Source: a virus. From it: a stretch of DNA of 63,110 nucleotides. The notes beneath the pieces are model-generated. The model was not told the DNA's origin, searched no databases, and saw only the letters and a list, made by a program, of their open reading frames with translations. Every line of letters begins with the position of its first letter. Positions within the stretch are counted from its first letter, which is position 1. Positions 3,901 through 33,639 of this stretch are shown here, piece after piece. A program made the translations under genes and the position numbers. Where the stretch lies: UHGV virus genome UHGV-0363527; one strand, given 5' to 3'.

Positions 3901-4493
3901 AAAAGGTCCTGATCTTGGACGCTTCTTATAGAAGTACAGGCAAGTCTGCAAGCACAAATGTCTGTCCGTCTACGCTTAAACAGCTAACCTCTTCCGCTTC
4001 TGAAGATATAAGCAATGCTTTAGGAAATAATTATGTCACTGGTTTTGCCGACGCTACAAGGCTGTCTATGTCTGATTCTTATTTGAACAAGGTTTGGCCT
4101 GCAGCTAAGGTTGATTCTCATTCCTCTGCTTATAATACGCAACAGTGGCTAGAGCTTGCTACAGACCCTGCTGCAGCACAATATGCGTCTGCAATAACTG
4201 TAGCTGGGACAGCTTGTCAAGTACCTAACTTGAATGTTGCTCTTCGTATCTTTATAGAAGCGAATAATCTTGATGCCTTAGATCCTACGCTGAGCGCTAA
4301 TGCAACAAAAGCTCTGGGTGATGCTAACCCTAATGGCTTCTTTGGTATTGACACTACTACTAAATCCTTGGCTACGTCATCAATTGGCTGGAGAAGTCCG
4401 GGCTATATAGTTAGAGTTAGCAACAATAGTGTTAACAAGATAACACCTACGATTACTCTTGGCATATGCCCTGTCCTTGAACTTGTTGCTTAA
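972..4493 (+). CDS. tail fibre / tail spike protein with three tandem fibronectin-III-like repeats and a large C-terminal domain
   Basis: 1173 aa. Three ~105-aa tandem repeats (approx aa 215-530), each starting AP(Y/T)V..P and ending in WSXWS-like motifs (AWSDFVSF, GWSDWSTD, GWSAWSEY). The ~600-aa C-terminal domain is typical of receptor-binding proteins. Confidence 0.6.
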   Translation: MKKYKYYNNTNGVVQSATRNSITNKVEVVVKVSSGQLGVSTSEVYPITFMAMDDTLFTGFSESCTYNASTDEYTLFFPGASISEETIAKFMYPSAEWELRVTQTELNELFNEVYQLTGNLVTTPEITGPDAPIVYQGTYANEYSFTASPTLAGNTISSFLVDVSGIGTQVITAADNAGTYTLKIPTTISAGTKLDMYVTATDSQGWKSSPAYKQLTVVAPYVKVPTVVKPTEGQEVIAINFDIQSSTFATEGLADTCSKTEFQIQNSAGTTVYTKELTGTTYTATITDANLQRGVLYRIRCRQFGTTLTTPSAWSDFVSFRTADIYIQAPTVISPVTGNQIFKYNVVISGDPFAVVGGETDTHTASQYRVQNVLGTNIYDSGEKTDALTSITIPELTEAVVGETYKISMRYKGATYGWSDWSTDVTVTIKSAYVNAPVLTAPTQNAQIKGTTVAFVQQGFATTGTSDTQTGVQYQLLTADNSVYYDSGELTTDYSAHTATITKPITDIALRARARNKGANLGWSAWSEYVNITVSPVLHLTFSDDGKLLYVGKPDGTPFDRPDGTFYWLGISTEVERQTPTSQTIASSSGFSYAQDGSGVFNYDTVVTNASLQNIKNDPSLIDRTLCTVGSTQDGEYSTLVCAATGIPISGDALTRNKFLPARTLSRNSTYSKFCHMPSKRELLYLVIQSDAIDAVAGDSFFDAHVAGMNKYNVTSTLYGAGIFNVILPRENLYCGNVAWNTSLTYTYTTALVTVDCDQYGTILPDKHGMAHPTNAGYHYWGFGANSPLMDYTGRRFWACTSDTVLSETFNLTGAYLAQSEPKTGKLNTETDVTVRSNYLFNVYPFQIFGTGAKDARWYISTLPSQETLDGASCFIASPYVTLVKAAYDASANDVKFSYASYYYNVYAKQYLTGIFGGPGLKYASSTSTDNMTFPSVKQCFVTTHEYLPVDTGRKLYRHSSGMGTVMEYIDADASKKKVLILDASYRSTGKSASTNVCPSTLKQLTSSASEDISNALGNNYVTGFADATRLSMSDSYLNKVWPAAKVDSHSSAYNTQQWLELATDPAAAQYASAITVAGTACQVPNLNVALRIFIEANNLDALDPTLSANATKALGDANPNGFFGIDTTTKSLATSSIGWRSPGYIVRVSNNSVNKITPTITLGICPVLELVA

Positions 4494-5231: not shown

Positions 5232-6995
5232 TTGAAGATTTATGTAAACAATTTCAAGGGGATGGCACCTAAGATCCCATCCCGTTTGAAACATGATAAC
5301 TTTGCAGATTTCACCAGCAACACAGATACTTCTACAGGTGACATTCTTCCCTTTGCTCATTATGACGGGACGTTTTCCTTGCCTTCACAAGTACCTTCAG
5401 CAGCCAAGTGTTTCTTCAAATGGAGATTCAAAGACAAAGACTACTGGTGGGGAAGTACCCAGTACGACAGAGTGAATGCTGTGTTCATTTCTATTCCTGA
5501 CGTATCTGTTGATAGACAGCAGTGCTACTGGATGCCAGACGGTGACACCATGCATGTTTGTGAAGGTGCCGACTTGCTTACACAGGTTGGCACCATTCAA
5601 GGTGACTCTGTTATTGCTGGCATTCCTCAGCCTCAAGGCATGACTATGGAAGTTACTGGTGATCCTCAGGCTGGTACTATACCTACTTCACATAGCTACG
5701 TTATAACATTTGCACGTAATTGGGCCGACGGTGTTGTTGATGAAGGTCCTGCCTCTGCTAACGTGACTACTTCTACTGGTGCGTCTGTAGTAGACGTATA
5801 CCCGGGACAGTCTGTGGTTATTAAAAACATCTCTGGTATGAATGCTTTCGGTAACGATGGAACTCAGGAAATCCGTGTGTACCGGTCGGAGACTACTTCT
5901 ACCGGTACCGCACGGTACTATCTTGCAGCTACAGCTATCTACCCAGAAGCTACACCTCCGTCTACTAAGTACACTATTACTGACAATATGCTAACCACAG
6001 GGCCTGCTCTGACGGACATGAACAACTATGCTATTCCGGGTGGTGCGCATTCCTTTATTGCACTTGCTAACGGTTACTACGCTGCTGCTAAAGACAGCAC
6101 TATTTATGTGTCTAACTACAACAGACCTTACGCATTTCCTCGTAAGTATAGTGTAACAATTAGTGAGTCTGTGGTTGGTCTTGGTTCCTTCGGCAATACT
6201 ATCGTAGCCTGTACTAAATCAGAACCTGTGCTTATAACAGTGTCTGACCCAGCCAACCCTATCGTTAAAGCTATGCAAGATCCACTGCCTTGTCTTAGCA
6301 AACACAGTATTGTGTCTACTTCCCAAGGTGTAATGTACGCATGTCCTACTGGAGTAGCACTGATTAGTTCAGACACGCCTAAGATTATTACTTCTCAATT
6401 GTTCTCTAACCGCGACTGGGCTAAGTTGAACCCTTCTGATATGCAGTTTGCTTACATCGGTAAGACTCTGTACATTTTTAGTAGGTCTTCTACTCAGATA
6501 TTGTACACGCTAAACTTCAACGAGTACAGCTATAACTCTCTGTACAATCAGCTTACATCTCCCGGTCTTACTAACCATACTACTTCAAACCCTAATGTTG
6601 TGAATACTTGGTGGGATCCTAACGTAAGAAGACTGTACGTTAAGTACACTGACAGCAGCTCTGTGTCTGTGTATACGACAGACGTTACGTCTATTAAGCC
6701 GGGTACGTGGAGCTGGACATCTCGTACTTTTGTAAGTGCACAAGGTGCGTGGAGACCAGTTGCTGCTAAAGTTAATCAAGAAGGTAGTTGTACACTGACA
6801 GTTTATCTTGACGGTAAGACTATCTTCTCAAAGCTGATTACAGGATCTAAGGTAGTTAAGCTGCCTGCTGGATACACAGGAACAGAACTTCAGTTCAAGC
6901 TAGACATGGCAGCTTCTAGTGCTGACAACACAGTGCATTCAGTAACGATCGCATCGAGTATGGTTGAGTGCTTGGAAGGAGCAGAAAGTAAATGA
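5232..6995 (+). CDS. putative tail structural protein
   Basis: 587-aa ORF in the tail region of the late operon, rich in T/S/G beta-like sequence; start overlaps the previous stop. Confidence 0.5.
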   Translation: MKIYVNNFKGMAPKIPSRLKHDNFADFTSNTDTSTGDILPFAHYDGTFSLPSQVPSAAKCFFKWRFKDKDYWWGSTQYDRVNAVFISIPDVSVDRQQCYWMPDGDTMHVCEGADLLTQVGTIQGDSVIAGIPQPQGMTMEVTGDPQAGTIPTSHSYVITFARNWADGVVDEGPASANVTTSTGASVVDVYPGQSVVIKNISGMNAFGNDGTQEIRVYRSETTSTGTARYYLAATAIYPEATPPSTKYTITDNMLTTGPALTDMNNYAIPGGAHSFIALANGYYAAAKDSTIYVSNYNRPYAFPRKYSVTISESVVGLGSFGNTIVACTKSEPVLITVSDPANPIVKAMQDPLPCLSKHSIVSTSQGVMYACPTGVALISSDTPKIITSQLFSNRDWAKLNPSDMQFAYIGKTLYIFSRSSTQILYTLNFNEYSYNSLYNQLTSPGLTNHTTSNPNVVNTWWDPNVRRLYVKYTDSSSVSVYTTDVTSIKPGTWSWTSRTFVSAQGAWRPVAAKVNQEGSCTLTVYLDGKTIFSKLITGSKVVKLPAGYTGTELQFKLDMAASSADNTVHSVTIASSMVECLEGAESK

Positions 6996-11324: not shown

Positions 11325-14300
11325 ATGGCACTGGATGGTGTTTTGAATACGGATATTTCTGCAGCACAAGCGTATGCTGCTGCACAGGCTGCACCTGTCT
11401 CTTCTGGTGTACAGCCCTATAGTGTTGTGATGGTCCCGGGCCTTACTGAGCAGGGACCTTTGCAAGATACTCTTGCTCATCAGGCTGCGTACCCACGTCA
11501 GCAGTTTACGACTAGTGTTCCTCTTAGAAGGCCCAGTAGTCAAGCTGACCTTGCCTCTTCCTATGTAAGCACAGTACCTGATGAAGTTCCTGTGTATATG
11601 TCTACTCCTGCTTTTAGTGGTTACTCTCAACCGTTTGAGTATCAAGAACCGAAGCCAGAACACGGTGAGTTCGTAAAGGGTTTCCTTCGTTCTATTCCTC
11701 AGACACAAGCTCTTGTTGCTGCTGGTGGTGCTGCTCTTGCTGACCTTATGGGTCATGAACAGACTGCTGGTGATTTGATGTACTATGCACAACAGAAGCA
11801 AGAAGAAGCACAAGCTCCTGAGCTGAAAGCTGCTGTTGAATCTTACAAAGACGTAGATAGCATTCAGAAGTTTGGTGATTACTTTGCTAGTCTTCTTGGT
11901 GAACAGACGTTGAATGTAGGTATGTCTCTGGCTAGTGGTGGCGTAGGTGCTGCTGCAGGTAAGAGAGTGCTTGCTGGTGCTTTGTCTGGTGCTATTGAAA
12001 AGAAGACTGCTCAGCTTGTAGCTTCTGGTGTTGCTGAAGCTGAGGCTCGTGCTGCTGCTACTAAAGCTGTGACCGCTACTGTTGGTGCACAGATTGGTGC
12101 AATGGCTCCTGAGTTTGTACTGAACACTGGTGAAAACTATTCCGGTAACTATGCTGAGGGAGGGCTACTTACTTCTAACCCCGGCATGGATATTGGTACT
12201 GGTATCTTGCAGTCTGCTGTTACACTGCTTGGTGGTGAAAGTCAGCTGCTTCGTAAAATGACTGGTGTTAAAGTACCTGACTCTGTTGAACGTTCCTTTA
12301 AGGAAAAGCTTAAGGCTTCTGCGTTGTCTCTGCCCAAGGCCATGCTTGGTGAAGGTGCAGAAGAATACACACAGGAATGGTTGGGTGCAGTAAACAGTAT
12401 GATTCAGGACGGACGTGCTCAGCTTACTGCTGATGACTTCGACCGTATGATGGAAGCTGGTATTGCTGGTGCTCTTGTTGGTTCTGCCTCTGGTGGAGCT
12501 GGTGTTATGGTTGACATGCTCAAGCATTCACCTAAGACAGACATTCCGTATGTTAACCCAGACCAGACGCCTCTTGAACTTCAGACTAAGTTTGAAGAAG
12601 AGCTAACTAAGATTGATCCCTTCACTCAGATCTCTAAGGGTGAAGGCATCATGCGTGATGCTATTCGTGTAGAGGCACAGAAAGCTGTAGCTGCTTCTGA
12701 AGAATCTTTTGCTCGTGCTCGTAATCCTATTGTCAATGCTTTGCGTAAGACAAAGGATGAGCTGACTACTGCTCGTGCAGGTACGTCTCCCAAGTATGCT
12801 CTGCTTGCCACACAAGAAGCAAAGGATGCGTACATTAAGAAGCTTGAACGTGCACAGCAGAAGTATACTGCTCAGCTTGCCCGGCTTGCTCAAGCAGAGC
12901 GTGAAGACATTAAGCAACGTAAGCAACAGTTTGAGAAGGATCTTTCTGAGTCTGATAAGAAGGCTCGCAAGGCTTTCCGCGAAACTGTAACAGAACGTTT
13001 TAAGAAGCTTGGCTATGATACCAACCTTACGGCTGAACAGATTGTTGATGACCGTAGGTATCAGGAAGCTTTGTTTAAGAAAGACCCGGTCAAGTACACT
13101 GAGATTATAAACAGCATTCAAGATACTCAGCAGTACGTACAGCGTAAGCTTAATCGTGCTGATGAGCATATGTCTAAGCTGCACGCACGTAGAGCTGAAT
13201 ACAACGTGTACCTTGAGCTCCTGCAGCAGAATGCTATTCCGTACAGTGAACGTCAGTATGAGTTTGTTACAAGTGAGCTTGCTCGTATTGACAAAGACCT
13301 TGCACAGATGAACAGAATGAAGGCAGACGTTAGAAAGTCTGCTGTTAACTTTGCTCGTTCTACTGCACGTGCTCAGGACTTGACTGAAGTTCAGACGAAC
13401 ATGGATGCCTTGTTTGCCAAGGCAGACAGACTTGACCCTGCTGTTCCTTTTGAACTTGACTTGCGTAAGCAACTGAAGGACCTTGCAGACAAGGAAACAC
13501 AAGACCGTATTGATGCTTTGCTTAAGGATGCTCGTGCTCTGCGCAGCACAGCTAAACTGACCAACGATCCCAACTATACGTGGGACGCAGACTTTGCTGA
13601 CTGGCAGGCTGCACAGATGGGCTCCTCTAATCAACAGGCTGCTCTGCCTAGTGCTGATGCTTTCTCACAGAAGTACGGTGCTCTTCAGCAGAACATTGCT
13701 CTTGAGCAAGCTGCTGCTTTGAACAATCAGATTAGTCGTGACAGGGTTGCTGCTGACCAGTACATGCGTAACATGATTGCTGAACAACAGCAACGTGCAT
13801 ATGAAGCTTCTCCTGCTTATCAGGCGCAGCTTAAGGTAGCTCAAGATAAGGCTAGCTATGACAATGCTTTGGATGGCAACGTCCCTGCACGTCAGGCTAT
13901 TCCTCAGGAGACTTCTCAAGCTCGTCGTGACCTTGAAGCTGAACAGCTCAAGCGCATGTACAAGCAAGAGCAACGGTCTAAGCAGATTCGTAACGACATT
14001 GAAGTACAGCGCCAGTCCTTTGAACGGTATACTCAGCAGGAAAAGGAAGTAGACTTCCAGCTTGCTTCTGAAGCTACTCAGCAAGTGTACGACTGGATGA
14101 AGAATACGTTGGCTCAGCTTCCCGGTTTGAAGGATGTTGTGTCTATTTGTTCTTCTGTCACTGACAGTAATGTGCCTACTGCTGTACATGATGCTTTGGT
14201 TAACCTTTCCTTTAATCCCAGCAAGACGCGTGGTATTCCTCAAGCTATGTACTGTGACGGGAAGATCTATGTGTTCGCTGACCGAGTAAAGTCTAAGGCA

Positions 14301-17300
14301 CAGGCAGTGCGGCTGCTTATGCACGAAGGCGTTGCTCACTATGGTCTGCGTGCTATCATGACTCCTCGTCAGTTTACTGGGTTCATGGCTGCTGTCTACC
14401 GTGATGCTTATGGTACTCCTCTGTGGAAAGAGTTTGAACGTCAGCGTCCTGCATACGAGAACGCTAATGACCTTGTTCGTACAGAAGAGTTCATTGCTTG
14501 GGTGGCTGAACGTGAGTCTCCTAAGTCTTTGCTTGAACGTCTCCCTGTCATTCGTGACCTGTACAAGTTTATTCGTAAGCTGTACCAGAAGTTGTTTGGT
14601 GTAGATGGTTATGTTACTGAAGCTGACATCAAGGATGTCCTTGCTGCTTCTGCACAGAACCTCGCTAGCAACAAACCTCAAGGTGTTTCTTCTAACTACA
14701 CTATCTGGGGACGTGCTACATACATGAGCTCGGCTATGAATGACGTGGCTCCTCAGTACGAACGTGTTGACCTTGTGGGCCCAGACGCTTTTGCTGCTCC
14801 ATATGGTTGGGGAACTTACTTCTCTCATCCTACGAAGCTTGCTGACTACTTCAGAAGATTCAACAACAAGCAGTCTGGCCTTCCCGGACAGGTCTACAAG
14901 AACTACGCTCCTTCCTTTGAGCAGTTCATGAACTGGGAACGTCCTCTGTCTGAACAAAGATATGTTGCAGAACATCTTAATCGTTTGTTTAAGCGGATGC
15001 CTCCTCAGCAGATTCCTGCACAAGATGGTATGCATATTCAGTTCTTAGGTAAGGACATCGGTGTCTTCCTTGACAAGAATGAACTTACTCAGTTTATGAA
15101 GAACAAGGGTTACCTTGAACGTGTGACTGGTCAGGATGTGTACGAATATCTTGCGTCTCGGTCTAACGACACTAAGCAGATCTCTAGTATGTTGAGAGAC
15201 TTGGGTGTGGCTGGTACTACCTTTAGCTACAACAACTCCCAGAGCTATTGTTTGTTTGAAGGCGACGACATCAGTCACACTGCTCCTGCATATAGTTCTC
15301 CTGAAGTTCGCTTCTTGGTAGACGAAGATACTACTTACAGTGACATGCCTCCTCTCTATCTTGAAGAGTGGAAGCGTGCACAGATGAACCAGCAGACATG
15401 GACTGACCGTATGGTTAAGATCAAGAACACTGGCAAGTCTGTGGGTATGGATGGTAAGATCATTCCGCATACTGGGTTTGAAAGATTTGTAGAAGGCATG
15501 TATGACAAGTACCGTCGTATTCAGATTGTGCAAAGGTACATTAAGGATACGATTGGTAAGAATGTTATCGCTCCTGCTACAAACATCTACCGTCATATGA
15601 CGGGTATGGTGAATAGAATTAACAGCATTCGCACTGATATTATGAATCAGCGGATTGCACCGCTTTGTGAACAGATTGGTAAGCTTGATATTCCTGCTGT
15701 AAAGGAAGCTCTTGATGACCTGCGTAAGGCTGGTCGTAAGGTTACTGAGCAGGACAGAGTGAATGCTACTTGGTCTGCCCTTGATGAGTTCCTTCTGGCT
15801 CGACATGCGCTGGAACGTAACGCTGAAGTCAACAGGCGGTACCGTGGTAAGAATAAGTTAGAGTCTCCCTCTGGTCTTTCTGACCAGCAGGCACAAGCTA
15901 TCATTGACAAGTACTCTGATGTGCCGGGTATGAATGAGATTGCTGCACAGTTTGACCAGCTTGGTAGATACCATCTGGACATGCTGGACAAGTATCGTAT
16001 TGTTCCCAAGACCCTTACTGATAAGCTCCGTGCTACCTATAAGCACTACGTCCCGTTAAAGAACTGGGAAGAGTTCGTTGACGATCTTGATCCTGACTAT
16101 GCACATAAGAGATCAAAGGCTGGTATTTCTGTTGGTGGTCGGGAGTTGTTGAAGAAGGCGAAGGGGCGGGAAGGTCTTGCAGAAAGTCCTTCTACACACT
16201 TGATGTTGCAGATCATGGATACTGTAAACATCGGTGAGAAAAACGATGTGTCTCGTCGTCTGCTTAACCTCGTTCGAGAAGTTCCTAACGAAGACCTGTG
16301 GGAAATCGCTACGGATAAGAATGAGAAGGGACAGCCATACTTCCGTATGTCTGAGAAGGGGGATGGTACTCTTTACTATGTGAGGAAGTCACATGGTCTT
16401 GAGGGTGAAGGGCACAAGTTCATCAACGTGATTGATGATAAGGGTAACCGTGTTCGTATTGCTATTAAGGACGTAGCTCTTGCTGCTGCTTTGCGTAACG
16501 AGAACACTGTTGAAACAGGTGCAGTCATTAACTTCATTCGTAAGATGACTCAGAAGTTCTCTGCTTTATTGACTACGTATAATCCTGTGTTCGCTATCAA
16601 GAACTATCCTCGTGATATTCAGACTGCTATCTTTAACGTAGGTAATGTAATCTCTGAGGCACAGGCAAACAACTTGCTTGGCAAAGAGAACAACATTCGT
16701 CAGCGTATCATTAAGGATGCTACCTCTTTCCGTATGGTTAAGTTCCTCTGGTCAGAGATGAACGGTAAGGAATATACTGGTAAGGATGCAGCGTACCTTA
16801 AGGAAATGTATAAGAACTTTGTAGACTTTGGTGGGCATACTCGTATGTTCCTTGCTAACGACTACAAGACTATGTACAAGGATGTACGTGAACTGTCAAA
16901 GCAGAAGGGTAACCTTCGTAAAACTCTTGACGGTGCTCTTAAGTATCTGGATACTATCTCTGACGTATCTGAAAATGCCACTCGGTTCTCTGTGTTCGTT
17001 GCTCTGACACAAGAGTTTGACAATCATATTGCTCAGGAAGCTAAGCGTAATGGTTGGTCTGCTCAACAGATGCAAGAGATGATGGATACTGCACATCAAC
17101 GCGCAGCTAACGAAGCTCTGGAGATCACAGTTAACTTTACTCGTAAGGGTTCGTGGGCTCCTCTCTTTAACAGTCTGTGGGCATTCTCTTCTGCTAACAT
17201 CGGTGGTAACGTGCGTATCTTGCGTAACCTCTGGAGGCGTGGCGATAGCTTTGCAAACAATGCAAAGAGAACCGCTGCTTTCATGGCTTATTCAGTAGCT

Positions 17301-18311
17301 TGTGGTATTCCACATGCACTACTGTGTAGGTGGCTTATGGGTGATGATGACGATGGTGTAAGTAAGTATGATAAGATTCCTGACTATATCAAGGACAGTA
17401 ACTTTATTATACCTGCACCTTTTGGTGATGGTGGATACGTAAAGATCCCCTTGCCTTATGGTTATAATATCTTTTGGGTAGCTGCAAATGCAATGGAAGG
17501 TGTAATCAGCGGACGCACCAAGCCTTCCTCTGCCGCTGCTAAAATCTTTGGTGCTTCATTTGATAACTTCAATCCTACTGGTGGAGCTTCCATGTTGAAC
17601 TTCTTGCCTACTATCTTCCGTCCTATCGGTGAAGTAGTAGCCAACCAGAACAGCTTTGGTTATGCTCTTATGCCTGAAAGCACACACAGCTTTAAGGGTG
17701 AAGTACCTGACAGTCAGAAGTACTGGGGTACTAATCCTATGTGGTGCCGTGCTGTAGCAGAGACACTGAACTCTTGGACATTTGGGTCTAAGGTTGAGAA
17801 GGGTTGGATTGATGTGTCTCCTGAAACCATCCAGCATCTTACTGAATCGTACATGGGTGGCCTTGGCAGAGTAGTCACACAAGCTCTTGGCATGTTGACC
17901 TCTCCTGTTACTGGTGCTCCCATTGAGTTGAAGAATGTACCTATTGCTAACTCTTTCTTTGGTAAGGTTGGTTATGGTGATACACTTAATGAGTACAGCA
18001 AGATTCGGAATAAGATGCAGACTGGCTTGAATGAACTTGAGCTTGCACAGAAGGATACAACTCTTTCTCCTGATGAACGTACTGAGATTAGAAACAAGAA
18101 CAGAACTATTCAGCAGCTCAAGAGTAGATATGATTCTATCAATGCTCGCTTGAATAGCGTTCGCAAGCTTGAGAAGTTGAATGAAAAGAACAACAAGTCT
18201 ACGGGTACTAAGTTCTACGAAGAAAAGGAAAAGCTGCAGAAGCGTAGAGAATTTTTGATGAAGGAACTTACTCGTGTGGCTAAGCAGTCAGGTCTTGACT
18301 ATAGGGATTAA
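11325..18311 (+). CDS. giant (2328 aa) internal virion / injected protein with a zincin-like HExxH motif
   Basis: Single uninterrupted ORF of 6987 nt. Ala/Gly-rich N-terminus, a long Q/R/E/K coiled-coil region, then MHEGVAHYGL (HExxH) followed by an EEF..E segment. Position equals the T7 gp16 / internal core slot. Confidence 0.7.
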   Translation: MALDGVLNTDISAAQAYAAAQAAPVSSGVQPYSVVMVPGLTEQGPLQDTLAHQAAYPRQQFTTSVPLRRPSSQADLASSYVSTVPDEVPVYMSTPAFSGYSQPFEYQEPKPEHGEFVKGFLRSIPQTQALVAAGGAALADLMGHEQTAGDLMYYAQQKQEEAQAPELKAAVESYKDVDSIQKFGDYFASLLGEQTLNVGMSLASGGVGAAAGKRVLAGALSGAIEKKTAQLVASGVAEAEARAAATKAVTATVGAQIGAMAPEFVLNTGENYSGNYAEGGLLTSNPGMDIGTGILQSAVTLLGGESQLLRKMTGVKVPDSVERSFKEKLKASALSLPKAMLGEGAEEYTQEWLGAVNSMIQDGRAQLTADDFDRMMEAGIAGALVGSASGGAGVMVDMLKHSPKTDIPYVNPDQTPLELQTKFEEELTKIDPFTQISKGEGIMRDAIRVEAQKAVAASEESFARARNPIVNALRKTKDELTTARAGTSPKYALLATQEAKDAYIKKLERAQQKYTAQLARLAQAEREDIKQRKQQFEKDLSESDKKARKAFRETVTERFKKLGYDTNLTAEQIVDDRRYQEALFKKDPVKYTEIINSIQDTQQYVQRKLNRADEHMSKLHARRAEYNVYLELLQQNAIPYSERQYEFVTSELARIDKDLAQMNRMKADVRKSAVNFARSTARAQDLTEVQTNMDALFAKADRLDPAVPFELDLRKQLKDLADKETQDRIDALLKDARALRSTAKLTNDPNYTWDADFADWQAAQMGSSNQQAALPSADAFSQKYGALQQNIALEQAAALNNQISRDRVAADQYMRNMIAEQQQRAYEASPAYQAQLKVAQDKASYDNALDGNVPARQAIPQETSQARRDLEAEQLKRMYKQEQRSKQIRNDIEVQRQSFERYTQQEKEVDFQLASEATQQVYDWMKNTLAQLPGLKDVVSICSSVTDSNVPTAVHDALVNLSFNPSKTRGIPQAMYCDGKIYVFADRVKSKAQAVRLLMHEGVAHYGLRAIMTPRQFTGFMAAVYRDAYGTPLWKEFERQRPAYENANDLVRTEEFIAWVAERESPKSLLERLPVIRDLYKFIRKLYQKLFGVDGYVTEADIKDVLAASAQNLASNKPQGVSSNYTIWGRATYMSSAMNDVAPQYERVDLVGPDAFAAPYGWGTYFSHPTKLADYFRRFNNKQSGLPGQVYKNYAPSFEQFMNWERPLSEQRYVAEHLNRLFKRMPPQQIPAQDGMHIQFLGKDIGVFLDKNELTQFMKNKGYLERVTGQDVYEYLASRSNDTKQISSMLRDLGVAGTTFSYNNSQSYCLFEGDDISHTAPAYSSPEVRFLVDEDTTYSDMPPLYLEEWKRAQMNQQTWTDRMVKIKNTGKSVGMDGKIIPHTGFERFVEGMYDKYRRIQIVQRYIKDTIGKNVIAPATNIYRHMTGMVNRINSIRTDIMNQRIAPLCEQIGKLDIPAVKEALDDLRKAGRKVTEQDRVNATWSALDEFLLARHALERNAEVNRRYRGKNKLESPSGLSDQQAQAIIDKYSDVPGMNEIAAQFDQLGRYHLDMLDKYRIVPKTLTDKLRATYKHYVPLKNWEEFVDDLDPDYAHKRSKAGISVGGRELLKKAKGREGLAESPSTHLMLQIMDTVNIGEKNDVSRRLLNLVREVPNEDLWEIATDKNEKGQPYFRMSEKGDGTLYYVRKSHGLEGEGHKFINVIDDKGNRVRIAIKDVALAAALRNENTVETGAVINFIRKMTQKFSALLTTYNPVFAIKNYPRDIQTAIFNVGNVISEAQANNLLGKENNIRQRIIKDATSFRMVKFLWSEMNGKEYTGKDAAYLKEMYKNFVDFGGHTRMFLANDYKTMYKDVRELSKQKGNLRKTLDGALKYLDTISDVSENATRFSVFVALTQEFDNHIAQEAKRNGWSAQQMQEMMDTAHQRAANEALEITVNFTRKGSWAPLFNSLWAFSSANIGGNVRILRNLWRRGDSFANNAKRTAAFMAYSVACGIPHALLCRWLMGDDDDGVSKYDKIPDYIKDSNFIIPAPFGDGGYVKIPLPYGYNIFWVAANAMEGVISGRTKPSSAAAKIFGASFDNFNPTGGASMLNFLPTIFRPIGEVVANQNSFGYALMPESTHSFKGEVPDSQKYWGTNPMWCRAVAETLNSWTFGSKVEKGWIDVSPETIQHLTESYMGGLGRVVTQALGMLTSPVTGAPIELKNVPIANSFFGKVGYGDTLNEYSKIRNKMQTGLNELELAQKDTTLSPDERTEIRNKNRTIQQLKSRYDSINARLNSVRKLEKLNEKNNKSTGTKFYEEKEKLQKRREFLMKELTRVAKQSGLDYRD

Positions 18312-25796: not shown

Positions 25797-26238
25797 TAGT
25801 ACTATTACTCTCAGCTAAGGTATCAAGTGAACAGACTTTATAGCCGTGCTTTTCTGCCCACTCTTTGTACGTAGTTCTTCTGGACGAAGACTTAGTAACA
25901 ACTTTGTTTTCATCCATAAAAAGAAACTGTATGTTCAAGTCTGGATACTGACTGCGTACCTGTGCCATCTTTGACCGAGCGGAGGGGTCAAAGAAACCTT
26001 TGCTTTCAAGTATTATCTCTGTACCATCAGCAAGGGTTAATCTAAAATCAGGTGTGTACTTACGCACAGCAGGTTGCCACGGTATACTGAATGGTTCGTA
26101 TTCCCATTCTATACCAAGTGAGTCAAACTTCTTAGCTAAGTCAGCTTCAAACTTAGACTTAAAGAGTACATTTTTATACTTTGTTCGCTTTACACCGCGC
26201 ACTGCGTTCCTCCCTGTGCAGGGCAAGATGGTCAGCAT
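25705..26238 (-). CDS. T7-type endonuclease I (Holliday junction resolvase, gp3-like)
   Basis: GIEWEYEPFSIPW..YTPDFRL..GTEIILESKG..YPDLNIQFLF..YKEWAEKHGYK aligns with T7 endo I (FEYEEWKVPYVIP..YTPDFLL..ETKG..HPELDIRIVF..YGEFCEKHGIK); PD-(D/E)xK residues present. Confidence 0.75.
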   Translation of the reverse strand: MLTILPCTGRNAVRGVKRTKYKNVLFKSKFEADLAKKFDSLGIEWEYEPFSIPWQPAVRKYTPDFRLTLADGTEIILESKGFFDPSARSKMAQVRSQYPDLNIQFLFMDENKVVTKSSSRRTTYKEWAEKHGYKVCSLDTLAESNSTNVERKTCRTGKHGSTRRSKGSHQGRAQASS

Positions 26239-26671
26239 TAGTCATAAGTTGAAGATTGTACCACCTGTTGTCTGCTTTATTTTTGTTTTTATGGTGAACT
26301 ACATAACCTTTAGGCAGGCTGTCTAAACCTTCGTGCTTACAGCATACTAACACATGAGCTTGAACTCTACAGTTATTTACTGTGCCTTTCCACCAAGAAG
26401 GTGGCGGCACCCATATATAACCTCTCTGGTCTACTGTTGGTCCTTGCACACGAGTAGCACTGTTATAAATACCTCGTCTTCGATAAGACTCGCTTGATCT
26501 AATTCGCCGTTCTTCTGGGGTTAAGTAGAGTCTAGCTATACGTTTGATGTTAGATTCTGAGTACTCAAACATAACTGCTATCTCTTCACAAGTTAGCGTG
26601 TTAAGTTTAAGAATACGCACTATCTCATCAACCGGATAAGCTAGACCTCGTACATACTTACGCTTCCTCAC
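26174..26671 (-). CDS. HNH homing endonuclease with N-terminal HTH
   Basis: HHKNKNKADNRWYNLQLMTNADHLALH HNH motif; paralogue of 26893..27411 and 31657..32250. Confidence 0.7.
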   Translation of the reverse strand: MRKRKYVRGLAYPVDEIVRILKLNTLTCEEIAVMFEYSESNIKRIARLYLTPEERRIRSSESYRRRGIYNSATRVQGPTVDQRGYIWVPPPSWWKGTVNNCRVQAHVLVCCKHEGLDSLPKGYVVHHKNKNKADNRWYNLQLMTNADHLALHREERSARCKANKV

Positions 26672-26892: not shown

Positions 26893-27411
26893 TTATACAC
26901 TGTACTCACGTACATACAAAGACTCCTCATCTATTGCACGACACAACCTTCTATTTCTATGCAGCTTAGCATGATCTTTGTGTAGCATAAGTACTAAGTT
27001 TTTACCTCTATTATCTGTCTTGTTTCCGTTGATGTGATGTACTGCATAACCGGTAGGAAGTTTGTCTAAACCCATACGCTTACAGCAAACAAGATGGTGG
27101 GACAGAGTTCGTCCTTTCGATGTTGTGCCCTTCCACCACTTCGGTGTAGTTGACCATAGGTATGCATTATACAATCTTGGCCCAGCATATGTAGGTTTAT
27201 AAGCTCTCCTAAAGTTTTCCTGTCGTTTAACTTCTGAGCTACGCTTACGCCTAAAGTCTTTAGAACATAGTATATTCATCCAGTTATGTAATATCTTGCT
27301 GTCTACACCATACTTCTTAGAAAGCTTTCTAATAGAGGTAGTGGTTTCAAATAAATCTGTCATAAACGATAGAATATCAAAACCTTTAGTTAGACCTAAA
27401 GACAAACTCAT
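26893..27411 (-). CDS. HNH homing endonuclease
   Basis: HHINGNKTDNRGKNLVLMLHKDHAKLH. Confidence 0.7.
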   Translation of the reverse strand: MSLSLGLTKGFDILSFMTDLFETTTSIRKLSKKYGVDSKILHNWMNILCSKDFRRKRSSEVKRQENFRRAYKPTYAGPRLYNAYLWSTTPKWWKGTTSKGRTLSHHLVCCKRMGLDKLPTGYAVHHINGNKTDNRGKNLVLMLHKDHAKLHRNRRLCRAIDEESLYVREYSV

Positions 27412-30700: not shown

Positions 30701-30750
30701 GAACTTTCTAAATGAAAGTCTTGAAGGAGCACAGCTCCGGTTGTCAAGAG
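30693..30750 (-). repeat. copy B of the duplicated ~57-nt regulatory element (palindrome GGAGCTGTGCTCC between two CTTGACAA boxes)
   Basis: Aligned by eye with 18987-19042. Confidence 0.55.
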
Positions 30751-31640
30751 AGGAAGGCAGGAAGATCTGCGAAGATCTTATCCATCTCTTCTTCCTTGAT
30801 CTCCTTCGTATTACCATAGTCATACCCTACTTCACAGTCTCCTGTCAAGGGTACCACAATATCCCAACCAAAGTATTCTTTAGCAAGTTGAGGTAAACTA
30901 CGGAACAGCTTAATACCTTCACGGCACAGAATCTCTGCTTCTTCTACAGGACAATCCCATACCATCGAGTCATGAACTTGAAGAATCAAGTTAGCCTTGA
31001 GACCAAGCTCAGCTACGCGTTCTATGAACTTGACCATGCATAGAAACATAATGTCAGATGAGGCAGACTGAACAGGATAGTTCTTTACTTGCTTGACATC
31101 AACAGACTCAATACCGTTACGTACTTCTTCATCAAACGTGAGCACACGTCCAGAAGGATTACGTAAGTATCCACGTGCGGCTGCAATCTGTGCGTTCTCG
31201 TCTTGCCAACGCTTCAAGCCTTGATACTTTGCATAGAATGCGTTAACAATCTCTCTCCATCTCTTTAAGCTATAGTCAGGCATACGCTGGTCTCGATAGA
31301 AACCTTCAGCGGAACCACCATAGAGAAGACGAAAGGACATTGTCTTAGCAGCTGTACGAACTTTCTTAAACTCTTTCGAGCCACGTTCATACTGGCCAGC
31401 ATCAAAGAATCGGATAGCATTGTCAGCATGAATGTCCAGACCTGTGTCCAACTCGTGAAGCATGACAGGATCTCTGCTCAGCTCAGCAGCAATACGCCAT
31501 TCAATCTGAGCTAAGTCAAGATTTACAATAACCCCTTGTTTACTTTTAAAGAATGTTTTGATGGGGCTGGTACCACTACGGGGAAAGTTTTGGCCATTCT
31601 CAAATTTTGTATACTGATCAGCTAAGTATACTTCCCTCAT
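30744..31640 (-). CDS. polA: family-A DNA polymerase, C-terminal part (palm/fingers; exon 2)
   Basis: Pol I motif A DLAQIEWR, motif B RTAAKTMSFRLLYGGS, motif C VHDSMVWD; N-terminus ENGQNFP continues the ..SSNP|NLQNIP region of exon 1. Confidence 0.8.
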   Translation of the reverse strand: MREVYLADQYTKFENGQNFPRSGTSPIKTFFKSKQGVIVNLDLAQIEWRIAAELSRDPVMLHELDTGLDIHADNAIRFFDAGQYERGSKEFKKVRTAAKTMSFRLLYGGSAEGFYRDQRMPDYSLKRWREIVNAFYAKYQGLKRWQDENAQIAAARGYLRNPSGRVLTFDEEVRNGIESVDVKQVKNYPVQSASSDIMFLCMVKFIERVAELGLKANLILQVHDSMVWDCPVEEAEILCREGIKLFRSLPQLAKEYFGWDIVVPLTGDCEVGYDYGNTKEIKEEEMDKIFADLPAFLS

Positions 31641-32301
31641 TACTGTGGTAATTGGACTATATCATCATGAGTAGACAGTACTTAAAGAGTAAGTCTACCC
31701 AAGCTGGGCGCTGTCCTATGTCTTCATAGGCACTTAGTCTCTGCACCTTCTTCAGTATTGCATGAATATGTCTGTGCTGACCAGACTTTAACAAGGCTAA
31801 GTTCCAAACCTTGTTGCATAGTTTATCACCATTGATATGGTGAACGTGCATTCCTTTTGGAACCTTTGTCATACCGTCTCTTTTGCAAACAACAACATGA
31901 TGCACAAAAACTTTACTAGAGTTTCCGCGTGTTCCTGTAAACCAGCTAGGTTTATAGACTAGAGCATAGCCGTCATTGTCTATTGTAATACCACCTGTAT
32001 AAAAAGGACTGTTCTTTCCTTTTCTGTTGTACATGGTGTTTAACTTACCAAGCTGGGCTCGTCTATAGTTCTTGGCCTTGCGTGCTTTTCTTTCTTCTTC
32101 TGAAAGTCTGTTATTAGCCACACGCCAAACAACATGTGCACTAGACTTTAGTTCATCAGCAATCTGCTGATATGTAAGCGCTGTGTTGATTAAGAGATGG
32201 TATGCTTGTTCATGCACTGAAGCTTGGCTCATGATTGCCCTCAGCGACATCTGTTAGGGTTTCCATGAGTTCACCCAGTTTTACAACCCCAATGGGTACT
32301 T
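31599..32301 (-). mobile_element. probable group I intron (about 0.7 kb) carrying an HNH ORF and interrupting the family-A DNA polymerase gene
   Basis: Exon 1 homology ends at ..TGRLSSSNP and exon 2 resumes at ..(N)GQNFP. This is the conserved TGRLSS-PNLQNIP segment of Pol I. The two ORFs are otherwise colinear with one polymerase. Confidence 0.5.
31657..32250 (-). CDS. HNH homing endonuclease inside the DNA polymerase gene
   Basis: HHINGDKLCNKVWNLALLKSGQHRHIH; lies exactly between the two polymerase ORFs. Confidence 0.7.
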   Translation of the reverse strand: MSLRAIMSQASVHEQAYHLLINTALTYQQIADELKSSAHVVWRVANNRLSEEERKARKAKNYRRAQLGKLNTMYNRKGKNSPFYTGGITIDNDGYALVYKPSWFTGTRGNSSKVFVHHVVVCKRDGMTKVPKGMHVHHINGDKLCNKVWNLALLKSGQHRHIHAILKKVQRLSAYEDIGQRPAWVDLLFKYCLLMMI

Positions 32302-33408
32302 AGGGTTGGAAGAAGAGAGTCTACCTGTACGTGTAATGCACTGGTTAAAGGAAGGATGAAGCCTGTCGTCTTTACCGATGACAGCAATCAATCCTGCCTC
32401 TTTCTCTTCTTTAGAACCAGCAATTGAAGACACTACTTTCATCAGCTTCTTCTGATCTCGTAGTGTTTGAAGGAAGGACTCAGAGCGTTTGTCACGAGAC
32501 TTTAACAAATCAAGCGTGTTCTTATCAGTTGAAGGCAAGCCAGTCTTCTTAGACAAGCAGCCGTCTGGAACTTTAAAGCCAAGTCCCTTGATAGGAATCT
32601 CAATCTTAGTCTTACGTGTGGTGATCTTAAACTTACCGCTCTTTAGCTGACGAGCTACAAGTTCAGGAACTTCTTTCTTCCAAGAACCACCAAATAAAAC
32701 AGCACTGAGTTGTGAAGCAGAGGAGGGAGTAAAGTCAATACCAGCCAGATCGACCAGCGTCTTGTCCATTGCTTTAACCTGTTCACGCGTTTGGTTACAG
32801 TAAGCAATAGCTTCTTCTTTGTCGAAGGCTGCACCAGATACTTCCATGTCAGAAAGGATCTGGGTTAGACGGAAAGAAAGTTCCGTTATCTTGCCAAGGC
32901 TTGCACGCTCAATGAGCGTGAGTTGTTTCTTGAACACGTCATGTGTAAGATGTACGTCCTGCTTGAGATAGTCTTCATGAATCTCTAACGGAATCTCATC
33001 CGTCTCATATCCAGCTTGCCAATACATAGCCATAGCATCGAGCTTATGACCTAAGCCATAGCGTTTGGCAACAGCATTCAAACTATACTCAAGTTTACGC
33101 TGACCATTTATGAGATAGTCAGCTACCATCGTACACCAGACTGGCTTGTCCTTGACATTCAAACCAATCCACTTCAACCAGTTCAAGTCGAACTTGATGT
33201 TGTGCCCAATCAAGAAGTCAACACTGTCAATCTCTTGTTGGATTTCAGCAAGAAGTTCTTCGTGTGGTCTATCGTTCGGATTGAAGAACCACACGGTTGA
33301 GGTACCGTCCTGACGTTCAATTCCAACAGAGCACAAGAAGGAACCTACTGTCCAAGGCATGTGCTTTGGTGCTTTAGAACATTCTATGTCGAGTACCGCG
33401 TAAGGCAT
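32281..33408 (-). CDS. polA: family-A DNA polymerase, N-terminal part (3'-5' exonuclease + N-terminal polymerase domain; exon 1)
   Basis: Exo I VLDIECS, Exo II FLIGHNIKFDLNWL, Exo III YLKQDVHLTHDVF; ends with RLHPSFNQCITRTGRLSSSNP (pre-motif-A segment). Confidence 0.8.
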   Translation of the reverse strand: MPYAVLDIECSKAPKHMPWTVGSFLCSVGIERQDGTSTVWFFNPNDRPHEELLAEIQQEIDSVDFLIGHNIKFDLNWLKWIGLNVKDKPVWCTMVADYLINGQRKLEYSLNAVAKRYGLGHKLDAMAMYWQAGYETDEIPLEIHEDYLKQDVHLTHDVFKKQLTLIERASLGKITELSFRLTQILSDMEVSGAAFDKEEAIAYCNQTREQVKAMDKTLVDLAGIDFTPSSASQLSAVLFGGSWKKEVPELVARQLKSGKFKITTRKTKIEIPIKGLGFKVPDGCLSKKTGLPSTDKNTLDLLKSRDKRSESFLQTLRDQKKLMKVVSSIAGSKEEKEAGLIAVIGKDDRLHPSFNQCITRTGRLSSSNPKYPLGL

Positions 33409-33409
33409 A

Positions 33410-33637
33410 CTACTTGCTCGGCTTAGCTTCGGTCGTCACGGTAGGCTCATCAAGCGAGAGAGACATCGTGGCTACGTTATTTGCTGCCTCAGCTTTCGTA
33501 TAATCTTTAAGCGCAGTCAGCATGTCGACAAGGGAGAGATCGCGCAGAGCAAGACCAGTTTCCTGTTCCAACTTAGCAACAAACTCTTCAAAAGCGATAT
33601 CAGCCTGAGCAATAACTTTGTTAGTGAATACGGACAT
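33410..33637 (-). CDS. small acidic protein
   Basis: 75-aa ORF. Confidence 0.35.
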   Translation of the reverse strand: MSVFTNKVIAQADIAFEEFVAKLEQETGLALRDLSLVDMLTALKDYTKAEAANNVATMSLSLDEPTVTTEAKPSK

Positions 33638-33639
33638 GT

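Follow-up and report, generated by a model that had tools for sequence, protein, structure and literature searches.

A probable group I intron carrying an HNH homing endonuclease gene in the family-A DNA polymerase gene of an uncultured phage

The 63,110-nucleotide (nt) viral genome UHGV-0363527, the whole of which is referred to here as the window, carries on its minus strand between positions 30744 and 33408 the two halves of a family-A DNA polymerase gene, with an HNH endonuclease gene lying between them. The upstream open reading frame (ORF; 32281..33408, 375 amino acids, aa) matches the Pfam profile DNA_pol_A_exo1 as well as positions 29-126 of DNA_pol_A, and the downstream ORF (30744..31640, 298 aa) matches DNA_pol_A positions 129-379 and holds polymerase motifs A (NLDLAQIEW), B (RTAAKTMSFRLLYGG) and C (QVHDS). 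This agrees with an earlier, sequence-only reading of the same DNA, which had assigned the 3'-5' exonuclease and the start of the polymerase domain to the first ORF and the three motifs to the second. Our sequence analysis makes it very likely that the gene is interrupted by a 703-nt group I intron encoding an HNH homing endonuclease, and that it is spliced to encode a single 653-aa polymerase.

Exon 1 (32302..33408, minus strand) comprises 369 codons, contains the 3'-5' exonuclease domain and the beginning of the polymerase domain, and ends ...TGRLSSSNP; exon 2 (30744..31598, minus strand) comprises 284 codons plus a stop and starts AAU GGC CAA AAC, or NGQN. When 33408..32302 is joined to 31598..30744, the reading frame is kept and encodes a family-A polymerase of 653 aa, with the predicted protein junction SSSNP/NGQNFPR (here and below a slash marks the exon junction or intron boundary), the peptide LSSSNPNGQNFPR across it, and the predicted ligated-exon messenger RNA (mRNA) junction UCCAACCCU/AAUGGCCAAAAC. 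The break falls in the invariant finger motif TGRLSSxxPNxQN, and both exons keep all their catalytic motifs and score strongly against Pfam. The sequence-only reading had already noticed that homology breaks inside this conserved segment and that exon 1 ends ...SSSNP, both of which stand; exon 2, for which it had given ..GQNFP as the start, begins with NGQNFP (31598).

The position of the junction was defined by comparison with uninterrupted polymerases. In a database search with the 653-aa query, uninterrupted homologues (637-737 aa, 47-98% identity) aligned gap-free over the joined exons, fixing the boundary at SSSNP/NGQNFPR; they include P0001-P0015 (637-666 aa, 59-98% identity) together with more distant full-length proteins, and SSSNP/NGQN is exact in most of them, the closest sharing the junction sequence exactly. 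In tblastn searches with the joined polymerase, the matching segments stop at residue 369 and resume at residue 370 in all of 13 related loci, and 11 related contigs (L001, L142-L150, L154) are insertion-free at exactly this site. On the basis of these breaks and of the insertion-free homologues and contigs, the intron is placed at 32301..31599 (703 nt, minus strand). It begins AAGUAC... after the final U of the exon (32302) and ends ...UUUGAG, the minus-strand boundaries reading ...UCC AAC CCU/AAGUACCCAUUGGGGUUGUAAAACUGGGUG... and ...GUAUACAAAAUUUGAG/AAU GGC CAA AAC UUU CCC. The exon 1 ORF thus reads six codons past the true exon end at 32302 into the intron, and the start codon of the exon 2 ORF, ATG 31640, is itself intronic, lying upstream of the true exon 2 start at 31598.

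All elements of the intron described here lie on the minus strand. An internal guide sequence, 5'-CCAUU-GGGGUUG-3' (32284..32295, intron nucleotides 7-18), can pair with both exons: GGGGUUG (32290..32284) forms P1 with exon 1 CAACCCU (32308..32302), giving 7 base pairs (bp) with a U·G pair at the splice site, and CCAUU (32295..32291) forms the 5-bp P10 with AAUGG, the first five nucleotides of exon 2. A UAA stop in J1/3 (32281..32283), between the guide sequence and the core, ends the read-through from exon 1 six codons in. The 5' half of the ribozyme core (32216..32278) contains the P3 5' strand CUGGGUG (32278..32272), P4 (32269..32264 with 32233..32228), P5/P5a (32259..32238) and the P6 5' strand CUUCAGU (32222..32216). 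The 3' half (31609..31756) runs from the P6 3' strand ACUGAAG (31756..31750) through J6/7 and P7 5' GACUA (31749..31735), a P7.1-like hairpin CCUAUG-AAGA-CAUAGG (31730..31715), the P3 3' strand CGCCCAG (31710..31704), P8 (31698..31671), J8/7 and P7 3' UAGUC (31670..31655) and P9 (31651..31640) to P9.1 (31631..31609). Core helices P3-P9 can be drawn in canonical order, including the P3/P7 pseudoknot, and every helix pairs perfectly in the window; P2 is absent, with UAAAA alone between P1 and P3. The terminal intron G (omega-G) at 31599 is conserved across all variants, and the two segments of the guanosine-binding site, J6/7-P7 (GCAGAGACUAAG) and J8/7-P7' (GAUGAUAUAGUCC), match the Rfam consensus sequences AaAGACUAAA and gAAGAUAUAGUC with high posterior probability.

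The Rfam model Intron_gpI (RF00028), which the sequence-only reading had named as a means of finding the ribozyme, returned a match in E-value mode over the 1.1-kb region at 31849..31633, in the 3' core (30 bits, E=1.7e-5), with helices that can be drawn but a score below the gathering threshold of 50 bits. A second, weaker partial match at 32268..32213 covers model positions 60-141 in the 5' core, so that the two matches correspond to the two core halves on either side of the body of the HNH ORF. The same reading had expected the ribozyme only in the short non-coding flanks of that ORF (31599-31656 and 32251-32301), which did not hold: the core overlaps both ends of the ORF, in P4 3' on one side and from P6 through J8/7 on the other.

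Relatives of this locus were collected by protein look-ups with truncated polymerases, DNA pattern scans and a protein-based locus search; a metagenome scan with the 16-mer CTGGGTGAACTCATGG gave 120 loci, of which only L125 and L130 are real homologues and the others chance matches. Near-identical and ~90% identical copies of the 703-nt intron occur in L018, L130, L015, L017 and L125, and a ~78% identical variant in L002-L004 and L014. A clade whose polymerase is 58% identical (L008-L013) carries a 261-nt intron at the same codon boundary that lacks the endonuclease ORF; it matches Intron_gpI with 46.2 bits (E=2e-10), and the Rfam alignment assigns to it the same P3, P4, P5, P6, P7, P8 and P9 as derived here.

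Six intron sequences were segmented by hand into P1, P10, P3, P4, P5/P5a, P6, P7, the P7.1-like hairpin, P8, P9 and P9.1, the segments rebuilding each sequence exactly. Hand segmentation, trimming of loops to equal length and gap-free realignment were adopted because MAFFT, applied to untrimmed mini-introns, misaligned the ORF-less variant in P6-P8. In the resulting gap-free, loop-trimmed alignment, 99.4% of the cells are paired across 66 pairs in 11 helices, and 23 of these pairs have changed on both sides, compared with a mean of 7.8 in shuffled alignments (0/500 shuffles reached 23). When the partners were slid by 1-3 columns, pairing dropped to 31-40%, with 0-7 both-side-changed pairs.

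The changes extend to the helices that involve the exons. Three of the seven P1 pairs are compensatory in relatives, the window's CAACCCU with GGGGUUG being replaced by AGACCCU with GGGGUCU or by ACAGCCU with GGGCUGU, while the U·G pair is invariant, and one P10 pair is compensatory in L008. P6, P7.1, P8, P9 and P9.1 likewise co-vary among the same-site variants: P6 is CUUCAGU with ACUGAAG in the window and ACGCAAU with AUUGCGU in a variant; P8 is GUAGAC with GUCUAC in the window and AUAGAC with GUCUAU or AUGAGG with CCUCAU elsewhere; and P9.1, GUAUAC with GUAUAC in the window, appears as GUAUGC with GCAUAC, ACAUGC with GCAUGU, and GCACAU with GUGUGC. P3 and P4 are compensatory in introns at greater distance, namely a group of ORF-less introns described below (L139-type) and the polymerase intron of the cyanophage Pf-WMP3, where P3 is CGCAGUG with CACUGCG or CCUUGUG with CGCAAGG and P4 is CUCAGG with CCUGAG. 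P5 and P7 are uninformative because they never vary.

The HNH gene is closely interwoven with this fold. The listed ORF, starting at ATG 32250 (31657..32250, minus strand), would encode 197 aa; it is present as the sequence-only reading had described it and matches Pfam HNH_3 at residues 116-159 (34.9 bits against a cut-off of 24.8) and phrog_7545 (E=1.8e-27), but its start is probably downstream. ATG 32250 is not conserved, being AUA or AGA in L003 and L015, whereas ATG 32232 is conserved and preceded by GAGGG (GAGGG-N6-AUG), so the product is probably of 191 aa (31657..32232, minus strand). This ATG lies in the P4 3' strand and GAGGG is the P5 3' strand; the ORF-less intron has this ATG and GAGGG in identical form, its frame closing after 12 codons. 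The body of the ORF occupies the P6 loop (32215..31757, 459 nt), the last ~33 codons are read from P6 3', J6/7, P7, P7.1, P3', P8 and J8/7, and the TAG stop makes up the P7 3' strand's initial 3 nt. Homology to the paralogues and to phrog_7545 fades out near residue 165. The protein is 42% identical over 125 residues (E=5e-31) to I-PfoP3I, the HNH enzyme of the Pf-WMP3 system, and a comparison with solved structures gave no match at E <= 1.

Two free-standing paralogues, adjacent to each other and outside the intron, lie on the minus strand at 26174..26671 (37% identity, E=1e-24) and 26893..27411 (33% identity, E=5e-17); both belong to phrog_7545, bearing out the paralogy that the sequence-only reading had proposed for the genes at 26.2-27.4 kb, and no further paralogue was found elsewhere in the window. 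In the related genomes L001, L003 and L004, HNH genes occur at varying positions, so the endonuclease gene content is polymorphic across this phage group. L001, a close relative, has a free-standing HNH gene (5477..5965, 35% identity to the intron HNH) directly upstream of its intron-less polymerase gene. The equivalent stretch of the window, 33409..33639, has no such gene and contains nothing but a 75-aa ORF.

Alleles with and without the intron occur side by side in this lineage, several of them within one metagenome. The exon flanks of all intron-plus alleles read CCAACCCT/AATGG or CAGACCCT/AATGG, complementary to their own guide sequence. Intron-less alleles mostly vary at these synonymous positions (TCA AAT CCT/AAC, AAT CCG/AAC), some having a G where splicing requires a U; in L146 or L149 the intron-less site reads ...CTCTCTTCTTCAAATCCT/AACGGGCAGAAC.... 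Between the near-isogenic L153 (plus) and L149 (minus) there are six differences within ±300 nt, five of them at +6..+18, and between L156 (plus) and L146 (minus) there are eight, three of them within 7 nt of the junction (-7, -4 and +3). The pattern is compatible with recent gain or loss accompanied by short co-conversion tracts, or with selection on pairing or on the target site. One further allele (L016/L157, IMGVR_UViG_3300014782_000014) has an intron of 603 nt, in which a 100-nt deletion frameshifts the HNH ORF and leaves the ribozyme core intact; it could be either a decaying endonuclease gene or an assembly artefact.

Other introns were observed near this site and elsewhere in the same gene. 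The L139-type intron (L139 ~4117..4345, also L140 and L141), from a clade with a 49% identical polymerase, is an ORF-less group I intron inserted 6 nt, or two codons, downstream (SSSNPNL/QNLPR). Two hairpins lie between its P7 and P3', and its P3 and P4 are fully compensatory; the conserved polymerase motif is thus a multi-site intron hotspot in the lineage. L008 (5629..5853, also L009-L013) has a second group I intron near motif B of the polymerase gene, where the window has none; its Rfam score of 96.7 bits passes the gathering threshold. Some polymerase proteins are truncated at 469-478 aa (P0016, P0110, P0112, P0113), a hint that this site, or yet another one, is interrupted elsewhere too. 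The core pattern GCAGAGACTA-N12-36-AGCGCCCAG (J6/7-P7 ... P3') also occurs in 26 otherwise unrelated IMG/VR viral contigs (L162-L191), some longer than 90 kb, with CTGGG(C/T) 68-101 nt upstream in most and ATAGTC downstream in many. Judged by these shared motifs, they probably represent a broad family of IA-type phage introns.

The closest known counterpart is the DNA polymerase intron of Pf-WMP3, a cyanophage of Phormidium, for which self-splicing has been demonstrated both in vitro and in vivo (Kong et al. 2012, PMC3428280). It is a group I intron of subgroup IA2, with all helices but P2; its ORF starts in P6a and spans P6, P7, P7.1 and P7.2, and the product, I-PfoP3I, is an HNH enzyme with a C-terminal motif; it introduces a nick into the coding strand, 4 nt upstream of the point where the intron is inserted (PMC3428280). 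The polymerase introns of the Bacillus phages SPO1, SP82 and Bastille occupy the same insertion position, are IA2-type and encode the HNH nicking endonucleases I-HmuI, I-HmuII and I-BasI (PMC3428280; the SPO1 site is as stated there). The family-A polymerase genes of ΦI/W31 and phiL7 also have IA2 introns and HNH genes, at other insertion sites, and the HNH motif of phiL7 is again C-terminal (PMC3428280).

Comparison with the fetched Pf-WMP3 record places the two introns at an identical codon position, SSSKP/NIQQIP in Pf-WMP3 and SSSNP/NGQNFP in the window. They share the lack of P2, the helix order, compensatory P3 and P4, and an ORF that enters via P6 and overlaps the 3' core. They differ in that the window has one hairpin between P7 and P3' where Pf-WMP3 has P7.1 and P7.2, and in the extent of the ORF, which in the window starts earlier (in P4 3', with the core-encoded GAGGG-N6-AUG) than its P6a start in Pf-WMP3 and extends beyond it, past P3' and P8, with its stop in P7 3'. 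At the DNA level the two phages show no relationship; splicing and nicking are demonstrated for the Pf-WMP3 system and predicted for that of the window. The arrangement in the window is a textbook one, a relative of an already proven intron and not a new kind of system.

The td, nrdB and nrdD introns of phage T4 are likewise IA-type introns in genes of nucleotide metabolism or replication, in which the endonuclease ORF forms a loop extending from a peripheral helix and an early in-frame stop keeps ribosomes off the core. They differ from the window intron in their host genes, in the GIY-YIG endonucleases of td and nrdD, and in the presence of P2.

Several observations weigh against the interpretation as a spliced group I intron. 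Rfam at its gathering threshold gave no match over the whole window; however, the proven Pf-WMP3 intron scores only 31.9 bits, close to the 30 bits of the window, so this threshold is not diagnostic for introns that lack P2 and carry a large ORF in P6. A single hairpin separates P7 from P3' in the window and in the L003 and L008 variants, where the IA2 criterion is two extra hairpins, P7.1 and P7.2, linked by G-U-A (PMC3428280); lacking the second, the window intron is classed as IA-type, either close to IA2 or derived from it, but is no strict IA2 member. The covariation comes from only five distinct sequences representing three main variants, the alignment leans towards structure because the loops were trimmed according to our own segmentation, and P3, P4, P5 and P7 are invariant among the same-site variants. 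Divergence between the window and the L003 type is similar in the intron (78% nucleotide identity) and the exons (79-81%), implying that the intron has also been inherited vertically for a long time, and would fit long vertical residence better than recent spread. Finally, exon 2 is preceded by an in-frame ATG (31640), in the window as well as in its closest relatives, so that a C-terminal fragment might be translated separately.

This last point, together with the listing of the two halves as separate proteins by gene callers and databases (P0021, P0022), would be consistent with a split two-subunit polymerase, in which a free-standing HNH insertion has divided the gene and the 375-aa (ending ...SSSNPKYPLGL) and 298-aa (from ATG 31640) halves assemble non-covalently. 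Both halves are intact ORFs with their own ATG, and the missing Shine-Dalgarno sequence before ATG 31640 is not decisive, since many genes of this phage are without a clear one. There is also precedent: nrdA of Aeromonas phage Aeh1 is split by the free-standing HNH gene mobE into two polypeptides that assemble, with no ribozyme, and other phages, for example the Methylophilales phage MEP402, seem to have polymerases split without an obvious intron. Nevertheless, although the window resembles Aeh1 nrdA in presenting an essential gene as two ORFs with an HNH gene between them, it adds a complete ribozyme and a guide that pairs with the exons, and a free-standing insertion would leave the fold, its covariation and the pairing to both exon ends unexplained. 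It would equally have to accommodate an endonuclease-free 261-nt insertion at the same codon boundary in L008, the splicing of the homologous Pf-WMP3 insertion (PMC3428280), and a break within an invariant finger motif. The ATG at 31640 sits in P9. L008 lacks it, and in L003 it is not in frame; the first ATG of L003 that is in frame lies 12 nt inside exon 2, so its product would be without the conserved NGQN. We consider a split polymerase very improbable.

MEP402 (L193, OP830907.1 6651..8762) provides the best match among the polymerases of cultured phages in the collection searched, at 33% identity, and its polymerase is annotated as two genes. These are separated ~15 codons downstream of the site used in the window; a 77-aa ORF lies between them, and stop and start overlap as ATGA at the first boundary. 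The case may represent either a polymerase that is truly split or another insertion. MEP402 and ICP2 were considered as same-site cases and rejected, their polymerases being interrupted at other positions.

Less probable still is a decayed intron that no longer splices, leaving the polymerase inactive, as in a defective phage, or replaced by another enzyme. The sub-threshold Rfam score, the single hairpin between P7 and P3' in place of the two that IA2 introns have, the overlap of the ORF with a large part of the core and the degenerate HNH gene in one relative would be compatible with decay. However, every helix in the window pairs perfectly, the conserved sequences of J6/7, P7 and J8/7 fit the Rfam consensus, and the substitutions between ~20% diverged variants are compensatory and not disruptive, from which we infer selection for the intron fold. 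The intact catalytic motifs and strong Pfam scores of both exons, and the recurrence of the same intron in many independent contigs of apparently complete ~62-kb genomes, are also at odds with a pseudogene.

An intein or a group II intron, both of which also carry HNH-type endonucleases and insert in conserved motifs of replication genes, can practically be dismissed, the former because there is no in-frame fusion (a stop follows six codons in), the HNH is a separate ORF and the Pfam matches include no intein domain, and the latter because those matches include no reverse-transcriptase or maturase domain and no group II family in Rfam matched the intron region even at E <= 10.

The group I intron with a homing endonuclease gene, which the sequence-only reading had favoured, is thus borne out by the full fold, its covariation, the exon-pairing guide, the ORF-less intron at the same site and the Pf-WMP3 homologue. 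From this anatomy, the junction, the polymorphism and the homology to a proven intron, we infer that the window's intron very probably self-splices and that its endonuclease is probably active on a specific target. The polymerase gene would be transcribed as a single pre-mRNA containing the 703-nt IA-type intron, whose guide sequence would pair with the last seven nucleotides of exon 1 (P1, with U·G) and the first five of exon 2 (P10). The core P3-P9.1, with its P3/P7 pseudoknot and without P2, would then perform the two transesterifications, joining ...SSSNP to NGQNFPR... in an mRNA for one 653-aa polymerase, and ribosomes translating unspliced exon 1 would halt at the UAA six codons into the intron, ahead of the core. 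By homology to I-PfoP3I, the most likely role of the HNH enzyme is to nick, during co-infection, polymerase alleles that lack the intron, close to its insertion site, and repair of the nicked allele would copy the intron in (homing).

The window resembles an almost complete genome of a tailed phage of ~62 kb, and related contigs measure 61-62.7 kb. Its genes include those for a terminase, a portal and an internal virion protein, for a virion-type protein of 2328 aa, and for a DnaB-like helicase and a ligase. The 2328-aa ORF (11325..18311, plus strand) matches, over its C-terminal ~850 residues, PHROG families of 2800-3900-aa proteins of unassigned function (phrog_14770, E=4e-108), and by these matches it probably encodes a giant virion protein. 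A scan for transfer RNA genes found none, and megablast of the region against 50,697 phage records gave no match at the DNA level; among cultured phages there is no close relative.

For annotation, the public protein sets and gene callers that enter the polymerase halves as separate proteins (P0021, P0022) should instead have one joined coding sequence, 33408..32302 plus 31598..30744, encoding 653 aa, and not two polymerase fragments. Phage introns of this kind are missed at the Rfam threshold and are probably under-called in metagenomic phage genomes. A more tentative possibility, which we regard as rather doubtful at present, is that the lineage keeps all the stages of assembly and decay of a mobile intron, with an HNH gene that has co-opted start and stop signals of the ribozyme core. 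The stages may comprise the empty site, the 261-nt ORF-less intron, the HNH-invaded intron and the copy with the frameshifted HNH gene; the source of the HNH gene may be the family of free-standing HNH genes in the same genomes; and the co-opted signals may be GAGGG-N6-AUG, from P5 3', J5/4 and P4 3', and the stop from P7 3'. If this is true, translation of the endonuclease and folding of the ribozyme would be mutually exclusive on each RNA, a built-in switch between splicing and expression.

The finding adds an uncultured environmental ~62-kb phage lineage to the short list of phages with a family-A polymerase interrupted at TGRLSSxxP/N, and reinforces this position as a recurrent intron hotspot (Pf-WMP3, and SPO1, SP82 and Bastille according to PMC3428280). 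The intron-plus, intron-minus, ORF-less and degenerate-endonuclease alleles of this lineage provide material for studies of the homing-endonuclease life cycle and of competition between co-infecting phages.

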